This document shows positions 3,942 through 63,760 of a stretch of DNA of 64,000 nucleotides, in pieces (within the stretch, counting starts at the first letter, position 1; each line of letters starts with the position of its first letter). Under the pieces are notes generated by a model that saw only the letters and a list, made by a program, of their open reading frames with translations, made no database searches and had not been told where the DNA came from. Location: positions 126,046,001 through 126,110,000 of the forward strand of contig CM059426.1 of assembly GCA_030390025.1 (NCBI GenBank), written 5' to 3'. Position numbers and translations under genes: made by a program. The DNA comes from Squalus acanthias. Its lineage: Eukaryota.

Positions 3942-4976
3942 AATGTGTTTAAAAGATCTAATTTGCCTATCATAGAGAAAAACAATAGTACCTTTGTGAA
4001 CTGGAGCACTGGGGGTTAGATGTGACTGTTGAGGTAACTTTTGGATAAGTGATGGTCTGGTTGGTCTGTTGAAAATCCAAATATCACTTTGTTTTTCCTT
4101 TTTTAAATAATTAAAAATCTATTTATTATTAAGATTTCTCCTTGAGGCATTCATGTAAGTTATATTTTTCCTCCAATATAAGAGATGGAATTTGGGTATA
4201 CCCACAGTTTTACATTACAAAGCCAATGCAACTACGTGTTTCCACATGTCAGGGTCAAGTTCAGTCTCAAGTTGTCAGCTTTTTGGGAGCTGTTGGACAG
4301 CTTTTCTAAGTTGGCATGCATGCTGCTGTAACATCATAAAATGTTTGCATTACAATGTGATTTATTTTTGTCTGGAATGCTGACATTTAATGCTGTTCAT
4401 TAAGGACCATTGCTGGGTTTTTTTCAATTCAGCAGTTTGCTTTCTTTGCCAGCATTTATAGTGCCTCCAGTTTTCTATGTTTGGCAGGCATGGAAATTTA
4501 GATGTTCCAAATGTTCAAAAAGAAAGCTGGTGCTTTTTAAATTTGGCCGAAAAAGACCCATTACTACTGATCCTGTTTTTGTGCCTGGATTGCAATGTAT
4601 GTGTGTGGTAATTTTTTGGAAAACATATAATGAGGTAACAATTCCACTCCTATGTGCTGGTGGTGCAGGTGCATTCCAGGCGCAGAAGGGACAGAAATTC
4701 GGGGAAAGGGGCCTTGCAGTGCAAACGCACTGCCACCGCACTGTCTGGGGCATTCTACCTGGACAGCGCTGGGGAAGCAGGAGGCTCACACTGCTGCATG
4801 GCACAAGCCTGATTACAACTCTGAAAAATATGCGAATAAGGGAATTGCCATCCAGGCCCAGCGTTCCATCTCGTTTGCGTTGGTAGTACACGTCATGGGG
4901 CAACCACCTTCAAAGCAGGTGTGCAGAAGTCTGCAGCAGCATACAGACAGTAGAAAGCACTTCTTCCTTTTTTTAA

Positions 4977-5209
4977 TGAGAAGTCGCACAACACCAGGTT
5001 ATAGTCCAACAGATTTATTTAATTTTACAAGCTTTCGGAGCAGTTCGCTCCTTCGTCAGGTAAGTTTAGCACTGCTAAACTTACCTGACGAAGGAGCGAA
5101 CTGCTCCGAAAGCTTGTAAAATTAAATAAATCTGTTGGACTATAATCTGGTGTTGTGCGACTTCTCATTTTTGTCCACCCCAGTCCAACGCCGGCATCTC
5201 CACATCATG
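4977..5209 (+). mobile_element. Fold-back Penelope-type pLTR insertion, family 1, copy 1
   Basis: Near-perfect 195-bp palindrome 4975-5169 plus a ~40-nt unpaired tail; 12-bp TSD TCCTTTTTTTAA at 4965-4976 and 5210-5221. Confidence 0.8.
5081..5119 (+). ncRNA. Minimal type I hammerhead ribozyme motif (mirror copy on the minus strand at 5025-5063)
   Basis: ttac-CTGACGA-a-GGAGC(gaact)GCTCC-GAAA-gctt-gtaa: stem I UUAC/GUAA, 5-bp stem II, palindromic AGCU stem III. Confidence 0.75.
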
Positions 5210-5697
5210 TCCTTTTTTTAAAGTTGTCTATGCAGTAAATTGGTAAGAGATTTTTTTTTGGGGGGGGGGGGGGCGCGAGGAGGTGGAGTGGTGGCCTTTT
5301 TTGCTTCCTTTTGTTGCATTTGTTAAAGTGAATTGTTTTGTTTTTTTGCATTGCACTTTAGTTTAGACTTTGTTTTACTTTTGCTGCCTTCACCACCTAC
5401 CAGTCGGTGGAGCTTCACTGTGATATTGAACAGCCCTTGCTGGTAGCATAGGAACTCCTTTAGAAATTCCTTTTGTCTTCAAGAAGCTAGACGACAGTGA
5501 GGATTCCTCAATGGATGCTCTGCCTGTACATGAGCTAGGTTGGTAAGACCCATCATTACCCCTGTAGCTGGATCCATGGAGCGCCTTAGGCATATCATTG
5601 GAGACGTGTCTTTGGCACCTGTATTTGCCCAGGGATGCCTTTTTGCAGACTGGGATTGTGTTCTCGAGGTGACATCTAGTTCTACCAGCAGAAAAGT

Positions 5698-6400
5698 CAT
5701 CATAGAATCATAGAAGGTTACAGCACGGAAGGAGGCCATTTCGGCCCATCGTGTCCGCGCCGGCCAACAAAGAGCTATCCAGCCTAATCCCACTTCCCAG
5801 CTCTTGGTCCGTAGCCCTGCAGGTTAGAGCAGCCCAAGTGCACATCCAAGTACTTTTTAAATGTGGTTAGGGTTCCTGCCTCTACCACCCTTTCAGGCAG
5901 TGAGTTCCAGACCCCCAGAACCCTCTGGGTGAAGACATTTCCCCTCAAATCCCCTCTAAACCTTCCACCAATTACTTTAAATCTGTGCCCCCTGGTTTTT
6001 GACCCCTCTGCTAAGGGAAATAGGTCCCTTCTATCCACTTTATCTATGCCCCTCATAATTTTATACACCTCAATAAGGTCTCCCCTCAGCCTCCTCTGTT
6101 CCAAGGAAAACAGACCCAGCCTATCCAGTCTTTCCTCATAGCTAAGATTCTCTACTCCCAGCAACATCCTTGTAAATCTCCTCTGTACCCTCTCTAGTGC
6201 AATCACATCTTTCCTGTAATGTGGTGACCAGAACTGCACGCAGTACTCTAGCTGAGGCCTAACTAGTGTTTTATACAGTTGAAGCATAACCCCCCTGCTC
6301 TTGTATTCTATGCCACGGCTAATAAAGGCAAACATTCCGTATGCCTTCTTAACCACCTTATCTACTTGGCCTGCTACCTTCAGGGATCTGTGGACATCTG
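5698..6400 (-). mobile_element. CR1 LINE 3' fragment
   Basis: ORF 5784-6356 (LVRPQLEYCVQFWSP...RRLRGDLIEVYKIM); ttctatga-type tail. Confidence 0.92.
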
Positions 6401-7449
6401 AAAGTTAAAGGAGCACATGCACAGTGACACACATGTGTACAACCTGCACATCAATCTGGGTGTCAGTAAGTGACTGTGCATCGTGTAGCTAAATTGTTGT
6501 AAAATTATAACTTTTATAACCTTAAAAGATATGAATGTGGCATGGTTTTCAATTCTACATTGCATCTTGAAGGTATCCTCTCCTGATGCATGAAATGCAA
6601 AAATGAGCTGTATGTAGTGAGAGGTTAGCACGAGTGAGGAGTACATGTGGAACAGGTAAAACTTTGCAGCAAGCAATCTTTGAGCTGCCCATAGGATACA
6701 TAGCATGGTTGGGTATCCTATCCTTGTCAGATTACTTTAAGTCTGTCATCCTCTTCTGCATCTGTTCCTAGGTAGTGTGCACAGCATTCAGCCTATTTAT
6801 CATCTGCTGCCATGAATGATGGTGTCCTCTGGGGAGGGTGCCCTGAAGTGCCAAATTGGGCAGCACTCCTGGCACCCACTTCCTTCAGCTGCATATCCAT
6901 TTAGCCATGCCTCAAACATCAGATTGGGTACTGTCACTTGCCCATAGAATCTGTTTTGTGTCTCCACATTGGGTTTTCTGTCAATTCATTTATCCTTGAC
7001 AATACTCCTCCCCCAAGCCTTGGCCAAGGCTGACAAATATTTGAAATTAATTTTGAAGCTTGATAAAGGCTGAAATTATTTGTCCACATTTTCAGGCACT
7101 TACCTTTAAGTGCATACCTTTAGTTTGTACCTGCTGGCCAGAATTTCTGCCTGTCCATTGGGCTTGCTCCCTGTACAAGGACAAAGTTGCATTGGCAGCT
7201 ATGCATAATTATTCAAATTAGCAGAAATTTCAGGACAGTCAGTGCACTGGACCACTGGTTCAGTTTGCACCATCAATGCAGCAGAAAAAAACTCAATTGC
7301 ACTGATACTAGAATTGCAGCCCCCATGTTGACTATGTGTCTTAAAATACTCCTGTACAGCGCCTTGGGACGTTTTACTACGTTAAAGGCGCTATATAAAT
7401 ACAAGTTGTTGTTGTTGTATAGGTTCGGTATACCCTCCAAAGTTCATAT

Positions 7450-8040: not shown

Positions 8041-9454
8041 TACTAGAGTCCAGTAGCTAATACAGCAGACATGTCCTGCTCTTCCTCTTTGTGCACTCAA
8101 AACATTAATGGCCCGGATTGCCATCCTTGTATATTGTAGGCAGGGAGCAGAAGGGGCCCATTTGTGCTGATTTGTGTCAAACTAACCATGATAAACTGCT
8201 GATGGTTGGCAAGTATGCACCAGTTATTCTGAGACACTTATAGCAGGTCTTCAAGACAGTTCTAGACTATATGGGGCTTGATCACTGAAAATAGTTGTTA
8301 GTTACCAATTTACTTGGGAAGAATTATAAACAGGCATATTTTATCAAATTGGTCTGGTCTCAGCTGTGTTTCTGGTACTGCTTGCATGATCTCACTGTCC
8401 TTTGAACCCTGTTTTAATATTGCATGGAAATATGTCAACATTACATGAATTTTGTACCATTAGTAACAAATGGTTTGTATTCATAAACATTGAAAGCAAA
8501 AAGGTGATGTAATCTTCTTAGGGATCAAAAGTAATTCATCTGCATTGTCTATTTTCTATTGGGGATAAAATAAATTATAAAATGTTGTGAACCTTCAGCG
8601 CAATTACTCATATAAGTGTTAATGACATCACAGTAAAACAAACAGCTTCTTGGAGACCAATTTATGGAAACAGCTAACTCATGGTATTTGTTACATTACA
8701 CAGACAGCAGACATTTATTGAGATTGGGGACATAAAAAGGCTGAAGTATGAAACCAGCAGAGATACCATATGACAGATGGAACAGGGATATCAACTTGAG
8801 TGGATGTAGTTCTTGTAATATCTAGCAATAAGGAGTAGCTAATTTAGTTACAAGCAACTCAGAAAGGTTCAATTTAGATTTGCTGAAACTGCATAGAAGA
8901 GATGAAACAGAAAAAAATCTGGAGGCTGAAAATCTGCAGCTCTTTCATGGCATTCCTGCTGTCAGTCTGGCATGAGTGCACGGGAATGGCTGGAAATTAG
9001 GCCTGGGACCCAGAAATGCTGGCTCTTGGCTTTCTGTGGAAACAATATTTCAGTGAGCGACTGGTCAATCTATGGAACAGACTCCCGAGGGAGACGGTGA
9101 AAGCAGTTCGTATTGATTCAGTCAAATGCAAATTAGATAGGATCTCTTTCAGAAAAGAACATTTTGGGCTGCATGAGTAATTTGAGACATCGCATGTGTA
9201 GTATGCTTGGGAGGAAAAAGGTGACTTTCGACCAATGGGGTAGATTGTAACTTTGTGTGATAGTGTAAAACAGGTGATAGCGAGTCAGCAGCCCATTTTA
9301 CATCTCTCCTGATGTTAATTTCCATTGAAATCAATGGAAATAAAAAGGCGAACTAGATGGACCTTGGTCTAGCAATTCCTATGTTCCTAGAGTAGACTCT
9401 GCTCGGAACGTAAGAATTGATAGACGAATGGAGCCTCTGCCTAATCCAAACATG

Positions 9455-9607
9455 ATGCGGAGATGCCGGTGTTGGACTGGGGTGGACAAAAGTGAGAAGT
9501 CGCACAACACCAGGTTATAGTCCAACAGTTTTATTTGAAATCACTGTTTCAAGTGATTTCAAATAAAACTGTTGGACTATAACCTGGTGTTGTGCGACTT
9601 CTCACTT
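9455..9607 (-). mobile_element. Fold-back Penelope-type pLTR insertion, family 1, copy 2 (truncated before the ribozyme)
   Basis: Palindrome 9489-9608 with the same tail as copy 1 in reverse; TAATCCAAACATG duplicated at 9442-9454 and 9608-9620. Confidence 0.8.
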
Positions 9608-10689
9608 TAATCCAAACATGGTTCCTCATGTTAGCAGGGGGGGGGGGAAGAGGAAGAAGGGTAGTGAAGGAGGGAGATCCCAGACCTGGAGTTTCCTCAT
9701 CCATGACCTGGTGGAACAGTGACAACTGGTATGCCGAGGGCAGACGTAATGGCCTGCCATAAAGCGGAAATGGGGCCCACCTGTGGAAAGGCCTGGGTTG
9801 TGGCCTGAAACCCCCAAAAATGAAAACATTTGGTCAATATTTTTGGCCCCTATATAAAAGGGGCTGATGGGCAGACTTCAAGCCTCTTTCTAGAGGAGGT
9901 TACTGCAGCAGATAATCACTGACACATTTTGCGGTTTTCCCCCTTTTGGAGGTGCCTGAGATGCACCCCTAGTGGCGCAAGGGCCCGCACTGATTATGTA
10001 AATAGGGTTACCCCCCCCTTGACCCTGCATATATTAGTAGCCGCCAACACCAGGGGTCACTGGCAGGTGCATACTGGCACATATACCGGGACGGATGTTC
10101 TGTGGATTTTTGGGGCCCCTATTGTCTTGATAAGCTACATTTATTTTCTAATGCACCAATTATTGTCCAGTCCACTTTAGGGCTGATCCATCTATACTTT
10201 AATTTAATTTTCCTTGTTTTCCACAGCCTCAAAAAATATACATTGCATAGCTAGTAAAAATACTCTATATTACAGGTAGCGTACATGGCAAGGTGTGGAA
10301 ATTTTGTGCATTTGCAGTATGTACAATATGTGTATACCCTCCCTCCCCACTGCCGGCCCCCATCACCACCGCCCCCACCTGAACTTGAGCTGCTCTTGTG
10401 TGTAAAGCAGTTGTTGGGCACATTAATATACAGGCCTTGTGTTAGCACTTTTTGTTAATGGAATTAACAAAAATTAATTGTTAAGCATTAATTAATGGAA
10501 TCTGTGCAGAATTACACAGGCTTCACTTCACACGCACATCACATGATTGATGCCCAACAAAAGATGATATTTGAGCAGCAGAGAAAGGAAATCTGAAATG
10601 TAGCAGAGAAGGAAACATTGTACAGCTATTGGTTAGTGCTAAAGAGCATGCAGCAGCATTGGTGCAGCAACAAATACTACTTTGGTCAA

Positions 10690-17445: not shown

Positions 17446-18112
17446 TTATGATGTAGCCTCACTTACAGAGATGACAGATTCTTCTTCCTCTTTTAATATT
17501 GATGTCCTTGGTTTTAATCGACTGAATAACCATGTCAGAATAGCCAGAGCAATTCGGACAATGATTCGTAAAAGAACAAATGCAAAAGGAACAATAATTT
17601 GCATCAAATGGAAAATTTCAGTGCTAAACTTACTTAAAACATATGTCAGACAGAACGTAACAAAGGCCACAGAAGGGTAAAGTGAAAGCTTGGCAAACAT
17701 AAATGCATGTTCTTTGCCCCCGTACCGAATATGACGATGCAGGGTTTCCTTTTCATGGTAAAGTGCTGCAGCCCATATTGCAAACTGAAAGAGACTTGCA
17801 AGAAAAATAATAACACAACTGATTTGAATGGCCTCAAGTTCATTACGTGACTTGGCGGCAAATTCGTGGGTGAGCCGAAAGGCCAATGGAAGTCCACCAA
17901 TGAAAGCCAGTGAGAGTGTGTTCAGGAGGCCCATTAGTCTTGTTGTCTTAGTGATGTAGAGGAAGAGTGAATGGTGAACAAACCAGAGAAGGCCAACAGT
18001 CACAAATGAACCAAAATAAGCCAGGAATTCTGGACCGTACTCACTAAGTGCTTCAATAAGTTTGCCATGGAACTTCTCTGTAACTTCTTTAGGTTCAGGG
18101 ACATTGTCCTCA
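17446..18112 (-). CDS. TMEM175: TMEM175 last coding exon (EDNVPEPKEV...SVSEATS*, 667 nt)
   Basis: tgttacag|T GAG GAC; split codon TG+T = Cys. Strong similarity to human FLAYFGSFATVGLLWFAHHSLF...HVLMFAKLALYP. All exons join in frame to 522 aa plus stop. Confidence 0.97.
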
Positions 18113-18525
18113 CTGTAACAAGAATATGCAAATAAAGTTATAAGAAAACTCAATAAAGCCATTAATTCACTTCATGACTAATTTTATACAACAATTGGCA
18201 TTTACCATAAAAACATCCCAAGCATCTCACAAACAAACATAACTAAGGTAAAACGATGCTGAGCCAGGGAAGGGAGAGATTAGAAAGATTGACAGAAAGT
18301 TTGGTCAACAAAATAGGTTTTGAGATGGTTTTTAAAGGTGGAGTGAGAAGTGGCAAGGTAGAGAAATGAGCTAGAGAGAGAGAAAGCTGCGGCAAGGAAA
18401 GCACAGAAGATTGGAGTTAGAGGAACAGAGTATTCGGGAGAGGATATAGGAGGACATTGAGGAATTTGTAAATGATGAGGTTTTAAATTAATGGATTGAG
18501 GATTAAGGAGCAAATGTAGCTTTGC

Positions 18526-18992: not shown

Positions 18993-20718
18993 ACTGACAA
19001 AGAAGGGAGAGATGAGTGAGAAGCAATGCATGACATGATATGGTTAGCAGCGTTGGAGAAGTTGGAATGTATAGAGGGTGGAGGATAAATCACATGGGTA
19101 TACAAGACAATGTAATTTTTAAAAGAGTTGTCCTACTGCATAATCACTATATTTTATTCTCAATAAATTATTACATCAAAGAGATACTTGTAAAGGGACG
19201 CATGCAAAGTCAACTGTGGAATACTGAAAGTATTCCAAGAGCAAGGAAGACTTGATTAACATATGACTGCCACAGTAACAATTATAAAGGTCTTCTTTAC
19301 TCAAATAAATTCTATAATAAGAGTACCCAAGTATTATCTATCTCTGTGTGTTTTAAGGCTTTATTGTATCAGAATTAAAGTTTTCTGAACTAAGATGCAT
19401 ATAAATAGTGATTAAAAAATTCATTAGAATGTTTAAAAACAAAACTATTAACATTGCACTCATATTAAAGCAATGTTTTGTTGTTTTTATGGAAAAGTCT
19501 GAAAATGTTTTTGCTTGTTTTACAAACAAAGGGGACTAAAGTGGATAGCCTCCGAAAACAGGCGTGGGGATTGCGATGCACGATTAACCCTTGCCCAGTG
19601 ATTGCAATGCAGGCAGCACGCAAGTTTTATGCTACCTGCTCATTTAAATGATCTGTGTCCAACGAGCGCTAACCACGCTGTTCATTGGCTGGATGCGTCA
19701 GCAGGAGGTCAATATCGTGAGAGGCTGGCACCAGTTAAAGCTAGCCTGCACTGCTTAAAGCTAGCCTGTACCTCTTAAAAGGGAGGTGCACTGTTGCTGG
19801 AGCAGGTGCTGGGAGTCATGATTCAAGAGATTCTGACCTGGGAAAAGAGTGAGGAATGGCAGAACAGGGGAGAGAGCGGGCTCCAAGATTTTTGGATGCT
19901 GCACTGGAGGTCTTGGTGGAGGAGGTGGAAAGGAGGAGAGAAATCCTGTATCCGCAGGGAGGAAGGAAGCCCTCCAGACACACAGTCAAAAGGCAGTGGG
20001 AGAAGATAACCATGGAGGTCAATGCCAGAGGTCAAGCCCCGAGGACCTGGATGCAGTGTCGCAAGAAGTTCAACAACCTCACGAGTGGTCAAGGTCAGTG
20101 AATGCATCTTCAAATGCCATATCCTCAGCCACTGCTCAAATCACCACAGCCCCTCCCCCCCGCCAATCACTCACCTACCAACAATCTCTATCAATCAGGC
20201 CTCATATCTAACATTCATATGCTTAACCTCACCTTCACACACTTAGTACTGCTGCAAGCCTCACACCCACATCTCATCTTGTACACACTGCCAGCTATTC
20301 AACCATGACAGCCACATCAGCCAAACAGATTGCACAACACTCACTGACACACTTCCCTCTCTCTTGCAGGACAAGATGGCGCACAACCAGATGGAGCAGA
20401 GGCTAACCGGAAGGGCATAGGCACGCCTTTATGTCCTAACTCCCATGGAGGAGATGGTGCTGGCCGTTATTGGAATGGCCATTGCTGAGATTGTGACCAG
20501 CGGCGGGACTGAAACCATCGACGATGACAGTATCCTCACACCTAATCCTCGTTTCCACATCCCACTTTCTCCTCATCCCACATTCTCTTCCGAGATGGTG
20601 TAAGCATGCCCTCTTACTTTCTCCCCCTTCCCGCACCACACCATACTCTTGTGCCTTTTTCCTTTCAGATACCCAAGAGGTGGAACTTGGCCAGGCAGTG
20701 GAGGAACACCAAGAAGAG

Positions 20719-22259
20719 GTTAGCCTAACATCTGTGGTAGGTAAAATTTTGGAGTCCATTATTAAGGAAACAGTAACAGGACATTTGGATAATCATAATT
20801 TAATAGGACAAAGTCAGCATGGTTTTACGAAGGGGAAGTCATGTTTGACAAATTTGCTGGAGTTCTTTGAGGAAGTAACATATAGAGTGGATAAAGGGGA
20901 ACCAGTGGACGTAGTGTATTTAGACTTCCAAAAGGCATTTGACAAGGTGCCACACAAAAGATTATTGCTTAAGGTAAAAAATCACGGGATTGGGGGTAAT
21001 ATTCTGGCATGGATAGAGGATTGGCTATCTAACAGAAAGCAAAGAGTTGGGATAAATGGTTCATTCTCAGACTGGCAATCAGTAACTAGTGGTGTTCCAC
21101 AGGGGTCAGTGCTGGGTCCCCAACTCTTCACAATCTATATTAACGATTTGGAGGAAGGGACCAAGTGTAACATATCAAAATTTGCAGATGATACAAAGAT
21201 GGGAGGGAAAGTAGTGAGTGAGGAGGACATAAGAAACCTGCAAGAGGACATGGACAGGCTAAGTAAGTGGGCAGAGATTTGGCAGATGGAATACAACACT
21301 GGAAAGTGTGAGGTGATGCACTTTGGCAGGAAAAATCCTAGAGCAATTTATTATCTTAATGGCAAGAAACTGGAGAGTACTGAAGTGCAAAGGGATCTGG
21401 GGGTCCTGGTGCACGAAACTCAAAAGGTTAGTATGCAGGTGCAGCAAGTGATTAAGAAGACAAATGGAATGTTGGCTTTCATTGCTAGGGGGATAGAATA
21501 TAAAAATAGGGCGGTATTGCTTCAGTTGTACAAGGTATTGGTGAGACCGCACCTGGAATACTGCATACAGTTTTGGTGTCCTTACTTAAGGAAAGACATC
21601 CTTGCTCTCGAGGCAGTGCAAAAAAGGTTCACTCGGTTAATCCCGGGGATGAGGGGGTGGTCATATGAGGAGAGGTTGGGTAGATTGGGACTCTACTCAT
21701 TGGAGTTCAGAAGAATGAGAGGCGATCTTATTGAAACATATAAGATTGTGAAGGGGTTGGATCGGGTGGATGCGGGGAGGATGTTCCCGATGACGGGTGA
21801 GACTAGAACTAGGGGACATAGTCTTAGAATAAGGGGCTGCTCTTTCAAAACTGAGATGAGGAGGAACTACTTCACTCAGAGGGTGGTAGGTCCATGGAAT
21901 ATGCTGCCACAAAAAGCTGTAGAAGCTACATCATTAAATAAATTTAAAACAGAAATAGACAGTTTCCTAGAAGTAAAGGGCATTAAGGGTTACGGGGAGC
22001 GGGCAGGAATTTGGACATGAGTCTAGGTTCGGATCGGTCATGGCCCTGTGGGTAGTGGAGCGGGCCCAGGGACCGTGTAGCCTGATTCTGCTCCTATTTC
22101 GTGTGTGCAATTCTGTTAGATGCAGGAGATGGTTCTGTGATAGATAGTAGATTGGCGGTTAGGATCAGATCAGCCATGATCTTATTGAATGGCGGAGCAG
22201 GCTCGAGGGGCCGATTGGCCTACTCCTGCTCCTATTTCTTATGTTCTTATGTTCTTATG
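20719..22259 (+). mobile_element. Relatively young 5'-truncated CR1 LINE with an uninterrupted RT frame
   Basis: Open frame from VSLTSVVGK through GVPQGSVLGP and KFADDTK to the stop at 22020; (ttcttatg)3 tail. Confidence 0.95.
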
Positions 22260-45504: not shown

Positions 45505-46465
45505 CATTTTTTGATATAAATAAATGACCTGGATATTGGAATACAAAGTAGAATTTCTAAATTTGCCGATGACACCAAACTTGTGGGGGTGGCAAACAGT
45601 GATGATGATATCAATCGACTGCAACAGGACATAGAAAGGCTAGCAGAATGGGCAGGCAAGTGGCAGATGGAATTCAATACAGAGAAGTGTGAGGTGATGC
45701 ATTTTGACAGAAGGAACAGGGAGAGGCAATATACACTTAATGACAGTTTTAAAGAGTGTGCAGGGACAGAGGGACCTGGGAGTTAATGTGCATAGGTCCC
45801 TGAAGGTGGCAGGACATAGAGAGAATGGTTAGCAAAGCATATGGGATTCATAAATAGAGGTATTGAGTACAAAAGTAGAGAAGTTATGCTGAACCTTTAT
45901 AAAGCGCTGGTTAGGCCACAACTGGAGTATTGCGTCCAGTTCTGGTCACCACACTTTAGGAAGGATGTGAAGGCCCTTGAGAGGGTGCAGAGGAGATTTA
46001 CCAGAATGGTTCCGGGGATGGGGGATCTTAGCTACAAAGACAGGTTGGAGAAGCTGGATTTGTTTTCATTAGAGCAAAGGAGGTTGACGGGTGATTTGAT
46101 AGAGGTGTACAAGATTATGGCTGGTTTGGATAGGCTAGACGGAGATAGGCTGTTCCCATTAGTTGATGGTACAAGGACTAGGGGACACAGATTTAAAGTT
46201 TTGGGCAAGAGATATAGGGGGGATATGTGGAAAGACTTTTTTACGCAGCGAGTGGTGAGTACCTGGAACTCGCTGCCGACATAAGTGGTGGAAGCGGAGA
46301 CCCTCAACGTTTTCAAGGGGAGACTGGATAGGCACTTGAGGGAAATAAACTTGCAGGGCTACGGGGATAGAGCGGGGGAATGGGACTGACTGGATTGCTC
46401 TACAGAGAGCCGGCACGGACTCGATGGGCCGAATGGCCTCCTTCTGTGCCGTTATGACTCTATAG
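45505..46465 (+). mobile_element. CR1 LINE 3' fragment nested in an older antisense CR1 end (about 45370-46615)
   Basis: FADDTK, LVRPQLEYCVQFWSP; the flanks read as an interrupted minus-strand CR1 3' end. Confidence 0.88.
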
Positions 46466-48886: not shown

Positions 48887-50280
48887 TAAGAACATAAGAT
48901 AAGAAATAGGAGCAGGAATAGGCCACTTGGCCCCTCGAGCCTGCTCCGCCATTCAATAAGATCATGGCTGATCTAGGGCTCAAAGCCACTTCCCAGCCCG
49001 CTCCCCATAACCCTTCACTCCCTTATCTTGCAAAAATGTGTCTATCTCCACTTTAAATGTATTTAACGACCCAGCTGCCACAGCTCTCTGGGGCAGAGAA
49101 TTCCACAAATTTACGACCCTCTGAGAAGAAGTTGTTCCTCCTCATCTCAGTTCTAAAAGGGCGACCCTTTATTCTGAGACTGTGCCCCCGAGTTCTAGAT
49201 TTCCCCATGAGGGGAAACATCCTCTCTGCATCTACCCTGTCGAGCCCCCTCAGTATCTTACATGTTTCGATAAGATCACCTCTCATTCTTCTAAATTCCA
49301 ATGAGTATAGGCCCAGCCTGCTCAACCTTTCCTCATAAGTCAAACCCCTCATCTCTGGAATTAACCTAGTGAATCGTCTCTGAACTGCCTCCAATGCAAG
49401 TATATCCTTCCTTAAATAAGGAGACCAAAACTGTACGCAGTACTCAAGGTGTGGTCTCACCAATACCTTGTACAGTTGTAGCAGGACTTTCCTGCTTTTA
49501 TACTCCAACCCCCTTGAAATAAAGGCCAACATTCCATTTGCCTTTTTGATTACTTGCTGTACCTGCATGCTAACTTTTTGTGTTTCATGCACAAGGACCC
49601 CCAGGTCCCTCTGAACTGTAGCATTTTGTAATCTCGCTCCATTTAAATAATAGTTTGCTTTTTTATTTTTCCTGCCAAAGTGGATAACCTCGCACTTTCC
49701 CACATTATACTGCATCTGCCAAATGTTTGCCCACTCACCTAGCCTGTCTATATCCCTTTGCAGGTTCTTTGAGTCCTCTGCACAACTTGCTTTCCCACCC
49801 ATCTTTGTATCATCCGCAAACTTGGCTACATTACACTCGATCGCTTCATCCAAGTCATTAATGTAGATTGTAAATAGTTGGGGCCCCAGCACCGATCCTT
49901 GTGGCACCCCACTAGTTACCATTTGCCAACCAGAAAATGGCCCATTTATCCCGACTCTCTGCTTTCTGTTAGTTAGCCAATTCTCTATCCATGCTAATAT
50001 ATTACCCCCAACTCCGTGAGCTCTTATCTTATGCAGTAACCTTTTATGTGGCACCTTATCGAATGCCTTCTGGAAATCCAAATACACCACATCCACTGGC
50101 TCACCCTTTTCCACCCTGCTTGTTACATCCTCAAAGAACTCCAGCAAATTTGTTAAACATGATTTCCTTTTCCTAAAACCATGCTGACTCTGCTTGACTG
50201 CAGTATGTTTTTCTAAATGCCTGCTACTGCTTCCTTAATGAAGGACTCCAGCATTTTCCCAACGACAGATGTTAGGCTAA
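48887..50280 (-). mobile_element. CR1 LINE 3' portion
   Basis: ORF 49053-50147 with YLDFQKAFDKVPH, GVPQGSVLGP, KFADDTK; ttcttatg tail. Confidence 0.95.

Positions 50281-53892: not shown

Positions 53893-53925
<33 letters not shown>
53893..53925 (+). repeat. G33 homopolymer
   Basis: 33 consecutive G. Confidence 0.9.
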
Positions 53926-55486: not shown

Positions 55487-55954
55487 AGCGACTGCTGCCA
55501 ACGAAGTTGAAGTAGTTGTGCATGCGCAGTCGAAGTGTTTTTTTGGTTGTTCGCTTTGCGAATCACGGGCTCTGGGGGAAAAAAAGCCAGGAACGGAGCA
55601 GGCTTTGTGAAAAAAAGCCGGGAACGGAGCGGGTCTTCGGGACTGTAGGGAAAAAAAGCCAGGAATGGAGCAGGCTCTGTGGGGAAAAAAAGCCGAGAAC
55701 GGAGCAGGTCTTCGGGACTGTAGGAAAAAAAGCCGGGAACGGAGCGGGTCTTCGGGACTGTAGGAAAAAGCCGGGAATGGAGTGGGTCTTCGGGACTGTA
55801 GAAATAAAAGCCGGTAATGGAGCAGGCTCTGTGAAAAAAAGCCGGGAACAGAGCAGGCTCTGTGGGGGAAAAAAAAGCAGTATCATCGATATCAGCTTCC
55901 AGAATAATGCATAGAACGCTTCTGCGCAGCCTCCTGTCGTTGGCAGCAGTCACT
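55487..55954. mobile_element. Inverted-repeat element with an internal minisatellite
   Basis: 18-bp inverted repeats AG(C/T)GACTGCTGCCAACGA at 55487-55504 and 55937-55954 enclose 8 tandem units. Confidence 0.65.
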
Positions 55955-59102: not shown

Positions 59103-59313
59103 TGAGAGGTCGCACAACACCAGGTTATAGTCCAACAGTTTTATTTGAAATCACAAGCTTTCGGAGCTATCGATTGCTCCTTCCTCAGGTGAAGGAGCAA
59201 TCGATAGCTCCGAAAGCTTGTGATTTCAAATAAAACTGTTGGACTATAACCTGGTGTAGTGCGACCTCTCAATTTTGTCCACCCCAGTCCAACACCGGCA
59301 TCTCCGCATCATG
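59103..59313 (+). mobile_element. Fold-back Penelope-type pLTR insertion, family 1, copy 3
   Basis: Palindrome 59101-59273 plus tail; 12-bp TSD CTCTCCTTTTAT at 59091-59102 and 59314-59325. Confidence 0.82.
59151..59192 (-). ncRNA. Minimal hammerhead motif, sense to TMEM175 intron 1
   Basis: tcac-CTGAGGA-a-GGAGC(aatcgata)GCTCC-GAAA-gctt-gtga. Confidence 0.75.
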
Positions 59314-62425: not shown

Positions 62426-62999
62426 CTGTTTTTCTCTCTCCACAGATACTGCCTGACCGGCTGAGTATTTCCAGCATTTTCTGTTTTTATTTCAGATTTC
62501 CAGCGTCTGCAGTGATTTGCTTTTAGCTCAAAGGGTGAGTTGGTTATGTAATCTGGAGTTCACAAGGTTTGTACAGTATTCTAATAAATCAGCTTTTATA
62601 CATCAATTATGTGCCTACATCACTGCCTGCTGAGGAATAAACCACCCCACGTGAGCATTTGTTCAATCTCCATATCCAATTATAGTATTTCAAAACACTG
62701 ATTTAAAAAAAATCAGTATCTTACCGTACTTTAAAGAATAAAGCTGCACAAAAGGTTGATTGTGGCAGCATTGGCACACCGGCCAAAATTTATGAGACCC
62801 AACAATTTCTACATATTTTATTACAAAGGTTGCATTTGCCAGCATTAAAAAAAATACCGCTTGCCGCGGCTTAACCATGTATTCGAGATTTTTCTTTCTA
62901 ATTCTTGAGTGGTTGGTTATGCGGAAGTTCGTTTGTGAGGGAAATGCTGTTTCGCCCCCTCCCCCCATCTGCCTGGGCATTAATTTAAATCAGAATTTA

Positions 63000-63760
63000 A
63001 CCCAACCGCAACACCCGCCGCTGCTGACGGTCACTGCCCCGCTTACCATGACAGTGGCTATGATAGAGATCAGGGCATCGCTGTACGCCAGCAGCCTGTG
63101 CGATGACTGCTCGCTGCCGTGGCCGGGATGGCCCTCTGCAACGCCCCTGGCCGCACTCGGGCTGGCATTAAAGCACAGAGACTCGGCTCCTGCTGCAGAC
63201 GGGCCCAGGGGGCTGGCCTCTTCCTCAATGGCCTCCCCATCGCCCTGCTGCGACACCGACATCATGTCAGCGGCGAAAGGCGAACCGTCACCTGACAACC
63301 GCCAGCCTGGCCGCCGCCCCCGCGCTTCTTCCAAACTCCGGGCAACACCGCGCGCTCGTGCACGCCACGCCTCCTTCGCGGGCGCGAGCGGCTGTCCGGC
63401 GCGCGCTTGCGGGAGGGGTGGGCTCGGGGGGCGGGTCCGAGCCGCGCGTGTCCGCTGGCTCACCTGTCCGCCAGGAGACGCTCGCGACCTTCCCTCGGGC
63501 TTTGGGCGGAGGTTGGTGGGTGCATTAATTAAGGCTTTGGATAACTGAGGATTTATTTCCGATAAACCTTTCTTTTGCCTGTTTTCTGTTGACCCCTAAT
63601 AATTGGAGTAAAAATAAGTTTGTTAATTTTGTTTCAAGTTCCTCCAAACTAACCTCAAAGCTCTAGGGACTCGGGGTAAATCGTGGGTATGGATAAGAAA
63701 TTGGCCAAAGGGTCGAAAATAACTTGGTGGGGAGGCCAGGGCGGGGCAGGGCAGAGCAGA
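63000..63760 (-). promoter_or_regulatory. CpG-rich island / TMEM175 promoter and 5' region
   Basis: Abrupt CpG and GC enrichment over 63000-63520 around the start exon; GC-box GGGCGGGGC near 63739. Confidence 0.7.
63047..63265 (-). CDS. TMEM175: TMEM175 coding exon 1 (MMSVSQ...SHRLLAYSDALISIIATVM, 73 codons)
   Basis: Translation matches the TMEM175 TM1 signature (human RMLSFSDALLSIIATVM). Exon ends ATG|gtaagc, phase 0. Start could be the second ATG at 63262. Confidence 0.93.

Follow-up and report, generated by a model that had tools for sequence, protein, structure and literature searches.

The fold-back insertion near the start of the window (the whole 64,000-nt stretch of Squalus acanthias DNA analysed here, contig CM059426.1, positions 126,046,001 to 126,110,000) would, in our reading, be a recent promoterless fragment of a Penelope-like element (PLE), made from two target-primed cDNAs that were copied from sense RNA and joined near its 5' end. 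We give this origin a probability of roughly 0.68. The family-level evidence speaks for priming from both target ends on sense RNAs rather than for self-priming on antisense RNA, as published; the window copy alone cannot tell the models apart, as its two arms belong to the same haplotype and differ at one site.

The insert (233 nt) comprises two 97-nt arms (4975-5071 and 5073-5169; 99% complementary, with one mismatch and a 1-nt spacer), followed by a 40-nt tail that has an ATG at its end and enclosed by a 12-nt direct repeat (Table 1). The palindrome folds with z = -28 (against 200 shuffles). It starts at an initiator-like motif and has no TATA box: the sense arm begins at the initiator A and the inverted arm at +3. 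Palindrome, tail of about 40 nt, 12-bp duplication and a hammerhead motif on each strand were all found as the earlier note had described them from the letters of the window.

Table 1. Coordinates of the insertion at 4965-5221 and of two further fold-backs of its family in the window
Feature	Positions	Strand	Remarks
Left target-site duplication, 12 bp	4965..4976	+	Last 2 nt common to the inverted arm (microhomology to the RNA U-tract)
Inverted, tail-less copy of the pseudo-LTR (pLTR) end	4975..5071	-	U-tract to about +3 of the predicted transcript; putative second cDNA
Minimal type I hammerhead motif	5025..5063	-	Mirror of 5081-5119
Fold-back junction	5070..5073	.	A at 5071 = initiator-like +1 of the pLTR promoter
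Sense pLTR end	5071..5169	+	Predicted 5' UTR of the element: initiator, hammerhead, spacer
Minimal type I hammerhead motif	5081..5119	+	
U5 tract	5168..5172	+	Putative second start site of reverse transcription (RT)
PLE tail, 40 nt	5170..5209	+	Putative first RT start site at its 3' end
Right target-site duplication, 12 bp	5210..5221	+	
Second fold-back of the family	9452..9614	-	Both arms start exactly at the predicted hammerhead cut
Third fold-back, another subfamily	59103..59313	+	

Parent element and age of the insertion

Arm and tail together form the 3' part of the pLTR of an autonomous element, of which two full copies (L031 and L032; pLTR-ORF-pLTR plus tail) were recovered. L032 encodes an ORF of 892 aa, and its tail ends at the ATG that opens this ORF. 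A reverse transcriptase domain was recognized in the translation (PF00078, E=2.5e-8), while its C-terminal 145 aa scored 0.96 to Atlas clusters in which 22-31% of the members carry PF01541 (a lead by the tool's own scale). A Pfam search of the same ORF gave no GIY-YIG match, a PDB sequence search gave no match, and NCBIfam returned generic RT matches alone, below the cut-off. The translation also holds VVY...YIG with two Cys between VVY and YIG, as well as GLKF and DKG motifs, so that the GxKF/Y, DKG and CCHH signatures defined in the available part of PMC8557442 are all found, and its C-X4-C-X2-C linker falls within the CX2-5CxxC pattern common to Neptune and Nematis. By these definitions, and as far as sequence motifs can assign it, the parent is a canonical EN+ PLE of the Neptune or Nematis type. 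The wider arrangement known from EN+ PLEs is found as well: pLTRs arising from a partial tandem, an inverted 5' copy, a 30-40-nt tail and a target duplication.

A third locus (L034) carries the window's own pLTR variant joined to nearly the whole ORF and to an inverted arm; the stretch 5071-5209 aligns with its 3' pLTR gaplessly over 138/139 nt, with one differing site only. Hence, the Penelope link that the earlier note had guessed from structure now stands on the RT/GIY-YIG-like ORF to which the arm's family is tied at these three loci elsewhere in the genome.

Alleles without the insertion were encountered in other samples. In contigs from runs X1 and X5 (two studies of one organism), the match to the left flank breaks off at 4973 and the right flank follows directly; in these and in one X6 contig (another organism) the flanks are joined over 62-74 letters, as compared with 311-314 in the window, and some 240-250 letters between the flanks are missing. 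These empty alleles support the 12-bp repeat as a true target duplication, and the insertion is probably recent and polymorphic. Taken with the intact 892-aa ORF, this polymorphic insertion shows a family that is recently active. Runs of seven other organisms contain parts of the arm and its flank at low share, and the family therefore probably spans related species.

The 31-nt central junction has one exact match in the whole 3.7-Gb genome. Considering this uniqueness and the missing TATA box, the insert is better read as a one-off, dead-end copy (a promoterless scrap of a PLE) than as a propagating unit.

As regards the surroundings, the last coding exon of TMEM175 was identified at 17446-18171 on the minus strand (PF06736, E=8.5e-14), which places the fold-back about 12 kb downstream of it, and an ORF at about 62990-63400 (minus strand; no Pfam match) looks like the first exon of this gene. 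The third fold-back (59103-59313) would probably sit in a TMEM175 intron; it has a longer loop II, a compensatory stem I change and a sense arm truncated inside the hammerhead. The second (9452-9614) has its tail on the minus strand and an 8-nt filler between the arms. LINE-type RT fragments, which we take to be CR1-like, lie at 841-2831, 5784-6404, 20497-22020, 45820-46284 and 49053-50234, together with a 40/78-nt tandem array (55577-55864) and a 33-nt G run (53893-53925).

Arm ends, putative priming sites and RNA templates

A 27-nt motif of the tail has 17,460 exact matches in the 3.7-Gb genome. We mapped 97 copies (of the first 100 listed matches, two duplicates and a mis-windowed locus were set aside; most of the sample lies within the first 16 Mb of a single contig) and found an abutting inverted segment in 60 of them, which bears out the inverted pLTR plus tail that had been anticipated. 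The outer end of the inverted arm is fixed: it lies 28-43 nt before the tail end, at the U-tract, in 57/60, and the equivalent of the window's U5 tract is the family-wide end both of inverted arms and of tail-less copies. Several tail-less, non-inverted copies end at this tract too (L181, L189, L197, L201, L207, L212 and L228; several with target duplications), and therefore the second start site can act alone.

The inner ends vary, being distinct in 55/57 sampled fold-backs. Arm lengths fall into coupled classes (33 short-short pairs, 20 long-long, 4 mixed). Exact duplications of 9-15 bp flank 47 of the 50 fold-backs for which both landmarks were found (one duplicate locus included), with exactly 12 bp in 26. 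An overlap of at least 1 nt between duplication and element occurs at the left end in 32/46 and at the right end in 30/46, as expected if both target ends primed synthesis. A T/C difference between arms recurred at 5148 in 15 fold-backs selected by BLAST; it was discarded as an ascertainment effect, because C stands at this position in all 100 listed pattern matches and no true T occurs at the equivalent site in the unbiased locus set. Identical fold-backs spaced at 3-65 kb (G000:C2:183.46-183.48 Mb, L011/L012, L078/L079) apparently stem from segmental or tandem duplication, not from retrotransposition.

The use of two templates was assessed in 62 head-to-head pairs (the unbiased loci plus loci found by 5'-end patterns), with recurrent stem II/loop II variants serving as subfamily haplotypes. 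Arms of two different subfamilies were met in 8/39 short pairs and in 0/23 long pairs (Fisher p=0.021). Such mixed arms are not the product of self-priming, and gene conversion should have hit the long pairs as well. At one locus (L231; G000:C1:43.39 Mb) the two arms belong to different subfamilies and each stops at the initiator A, an additional C and G separating them; judged by its sequence, this locus is the best single candidate for two capped RNAs.

The same kind of PLE by-product could also arise by self-priming, in which a single strand (a cDNA or, as PMC3846280 proposes, an antisense RNA) folds back to serve as its own template, a route that we consider unlikely for the family. It would account for the coupling of arm lengths, for the single haplotype shared by most pairs (the window's arms differ at one site) and for inner ends that lie within 15 nt of each other in 31/57 pairs, including 5/20 long pairs, which are near-perfect palindromes. 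A single fold-back, however, lets one arm type alone be the longer, and both occur: the inverted arm exceeds the sense arm by more than 15 nt in 20 pairs (in L095 it reaches about 1 kb against a 48-nt sense part) and the sense arm exceeds the inverted in 6. Self-priming likewise offers no route to the two-subfamily arms, and it leaves unexplained both the fixed outer end with its target microhomology and the ends at the sense initiator. Nevertheless, the long pairs may be made from one RNA or through a fold-back step, as their coupling, their palindromes and their lack of mixed arms fit self-copying or a single RNA.

In nearly all full arms a TATA-like box lies 28-33 nt upstream of an initiator-like TCA, which precedes the hammerhead core by 7 or 13-14 nt depending on the subfamily (13-14 nt in the window's group); both elements are motif calls, and the transcription start is a predicted one. 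Around this point the inner ends pile up, with 44 of 114 in the 31-nt bin that holds the initiator, 6 in the upstream bin and 17 in the downstream bin. When searched genome-wide with start patterns that required two non-native bases before the arm, the 7-nt group gave 1,363 starts at +1, 460 at -1 and 217 at -3, next to 11,558 arms that are intact to -4 on the promoter side (a +2 control, with 2,497 matches, was left unused as it is contaminated by another subfamily's native sequence). A hand tally of the first 100 listed truncated arms of this group set the mode at +1 (36 arms). In the window's group the corresponding tally (first 100 listed) placed 84 ends from -1 to +8, 7 at -2/-3 and 9 further up, with the mode at +2, and only 235 arms start exactly at +1. 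The upstream edge thus shifts together with the initiator, lying 7 nt from the core in one group and 13-14 nt in the other.

In the 7-nt group, 64 of the first 100 listed arms have a G just before +1, compared with 39 and 43 in controls. Many of these G's are readable from the partner arm, and the signal was not replicated in the window's 13-nt group (26/100); for the 7-nt group we regard a cap-derived G as suggestive only.

That the pile-up marks a structural stop of the enzyme just past the hammerhead, instead of run-off at the transcription start, seems quite improbable to us. A stall is expected on entering a stem and not after leaving it, the upstream edge is sharp (1,363 against 217) and moves with the initiator, and it keeps its 28-33 nt from the TATA-like box in nearly all full arms. 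What such a stop would explain more readily is the window's group, where the ends are scattered across some 9 nt from the initiator to stem I and the cap-G is not replicated.

We infer the following course for twin priming on sense RNA. (1) A TATA/initiator promoter in the upstream pLTR would give an mRNA with a leader of about 140 nt, laid out as initiator-hammerhead-spacer-tail-ATG. (2) The GIY-YIG domain would cut both target strands about 12 bp apart. (3) One of the 3' ends would prime at the tail end and the other at the U-tract some 37 nt upstream, each with 0-4 nt of microhomology. (4) Whenever priming takes place on the leader copy and not on the 3' copy, both cDNAs would reach the end of their template at the transcription start or stop slightly before it, with two different RNAs used at least sometimes. 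(5) The cDNA ends would then be joined by a template jump or by microhomology end joining, and filled in. The two-site RT start and the extension of both strands reported in vitro (PMC11167929, available part) fit steps (2) and (3).

The hammerhead motif inside the fold-back

A pattern of core, stem II and GAAA matches the window at 5085-5111 (+), at 5033-5059 (-) and, for the third fold-back, at 59159-59188, and has any match in 0/100 shuffles. On the plus strand stem I is formed by 5081-84/5116-19 and stem II by 5093-97/5103-07, with the core at 5085-91, GAAA at 5108-11 and a palindromic stem III; an unpaired A (5092) between core and stem II is a detail absent from the earlier description, whose predicted cut after 5115 agrees with standard numbering. 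Rfam gave no gathering-score match in the window, and its 17 matches at E<=10 include no hammerhead (only miRNA models match the hairpin). The features of a minimal type I hammerhead (core, GAAA, stems I and II, palindromic stem III, variation at tolerant sites) are nonetheless all there, and in the predicted fold of the isolated arm or leader stems I and II both form, with probabilities of 1.0 and 0.95.

Across 129 arms GAAA is kept in 127, the palindromic GC in 129 and U16.1 in 127, in line with the family-wide conservation foreseen for the core, although that of the 5' core is partly by construction (it belonged to the search pattern). All four bases occur at N7, loop II is of variable length and position 17 is U or C. 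In stem I, TTAC/GTAA (51 arms) and TCAC/GTGA (17) make a compensatory pair, and the outer pair is mismatched in 43 of the 129. At the sequence level this is the pattern of a motif under selection in active parents, where the hammerhead is likely functional as a dimer or with protein help.

Inside the fold-back the situation is different. With the arms head-to-head, antisense precedes the ribozyme on either strand; forming the hammerhead stems is predicted to cost 68 kcal/mol, and stem II to have a probability of about 1e-18, in growing transcripts also. The proposed switch between self-cleavage and a double-stranded hairpin finds no support in these values. Since the two hammerheads sit on opposite strands, never on one RNA, there can be no dimer within one RNA. 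We propose, from these models, that the insert's hammerhead is cargo from the parent's leader, silenced by its own antisense.

The idea of a non-autonomous, ribozyme-bearing unit that is transcribed, re-mobilised and able to switch in this way, as put forward earlier, consequently appears very doubtful. The motif is intact on both strands, short fold-backs of similar size make up 33/97 sampled copies, and read-through from either side would give a 96-bp hairpin, all of which such a unit would show. Yet a mobilised unit is hard to reconcile with a junction found once in 3.7 Gb, with inner ends that hardly ever recur, with an insert without a promoter that is missing in other samples, with antisense that always comes first and with the want of a second sense hammerhead for a dimer. 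A miniature inverted-repeat (MITE) or other DNA transposon, for which a short, non-coding, palindromic insert with a target duplication might be taken, is ruled out by the ORF linkage, the arm being the pLTR of an RT-coding element whose inner ends vary, with an inverted repeat that is not terminal and a 40-nt tail on one side only.

As to cleavage in vivo, 138/156 arms retain an intact 3' hammerhead block, therefore most cDNAs passed the cut site. Arm starts at the predicted cut number 302, versus 155 at +1 and 240 at +3 (about one third of these resemble 1-nt deletions); we rejected this as an in vivo cleavage footprint, the excess being only ~1.5-2-fold over its neighbours and owed in part to stem I microhomology and to insertions in intact arms. 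The weak enrichment agrees with uncleaved RNA as the main template (PMC11167929, available part).

Relation to known elements

The inverted pLTR with its tail is an already published architecture, and the object itself is a textbook PLE arrangement. The minimal hammerheads of PLE pLTRs (PMC4209133, available part) are likewise of type I without loop III, with palindromic 15.2-16.2, a G10.1-C11.1 pair and an unpaired base before stem II. Opposite-strand pairs are described there at 100-700 bp, with low activity even as dimers; nothing essential differs here, save a stem II of 5 bp and opposite-strand cores that are closer (25 nt between). Compared with the EN+ PLEs of the Neptune and Nematis types, as described in the available parts of PMC8557442 and PMC3846280, the tail of this family ends at the ORF start codon and not inside the ORF, the duplications peak sharply at 12 bp, and one third of the copies are short fold-backs that end at the initiator. 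Non-coding, PLE-derived units with a type I hammerhead are also known as animal non-LTR retrozymes; these, in the available part of bioRxiv 10.64898/2026.07.22.740005, are head-to-tail tandems with at least two same-strand hammerheads, whereas the window holds a single head-to-head insert that lacks both the tandem and the same-strand pair.

For the anole Poseidon element PAc, in vitro work (PMC11167929) found internal RT starts at two sites that bound the tail, cleavage and extension of both target strands, uncleaved RNA as the main template, a hammerhead that needs protein and a protein predicted to be a dimer; inverted arms, inner ends and mixed templates are not treated in the part of that paper covered here. 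LINE-1 twin priming (PMC11702581, available part) shares with our proposal a second priming from the other target end, the use of microhomology and a preserved duplication, and full-length L1 5' junctions carry an extra cap-derived G. In L1, the site of second priming adjoins the end of the first cDNA, and the outcome is an inversion without overlap; in our proposal each cDNA starts from its own fixed site, but both cover one and the same stretch and give a palindrome. One L1-like case was met (L048, G000:C1:0.91 Mb), in which the inversion lies within the ORF and the inverted part sits upstream of the sense part, with no overlap.

How inverted pLTRs and tails come about is not settled in PMC3846280 or PMC8557442, as far as their available parts go: self-priming on an antisense template is proposed in the Discussion of the former and left open by its authors, and PMC11167929 explains the tail alone. 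Twin priming or start-site run-off for PLEs was not found in the literature, by a search that was thin on subscription papers (including the 2005-2006 PLE reviews).

It may be, at even odds, that a PLE integrates as a dimer, which carries two capped sense RNAs and starts synthesis from both ends of the target simultaneously, the short fold-backs being double strong-stop products. If true, tens of thousands of short fold-backs would bear traces of the transcription start, of the cap and of two different RNAs having been used, and inverted pLTRs with their tails would be explained without an antisense template. The fixed outer ends, the ends at the initiator and the mixed-subfamily arms give a concrete model, testable in the existing in vitro system. 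The family has left thousands of long perfect palindromes across the genome, which could yield double-stranded RNA if read through, and its copies amount to a vast natural archive of an integration reaction that is still poorly understood.
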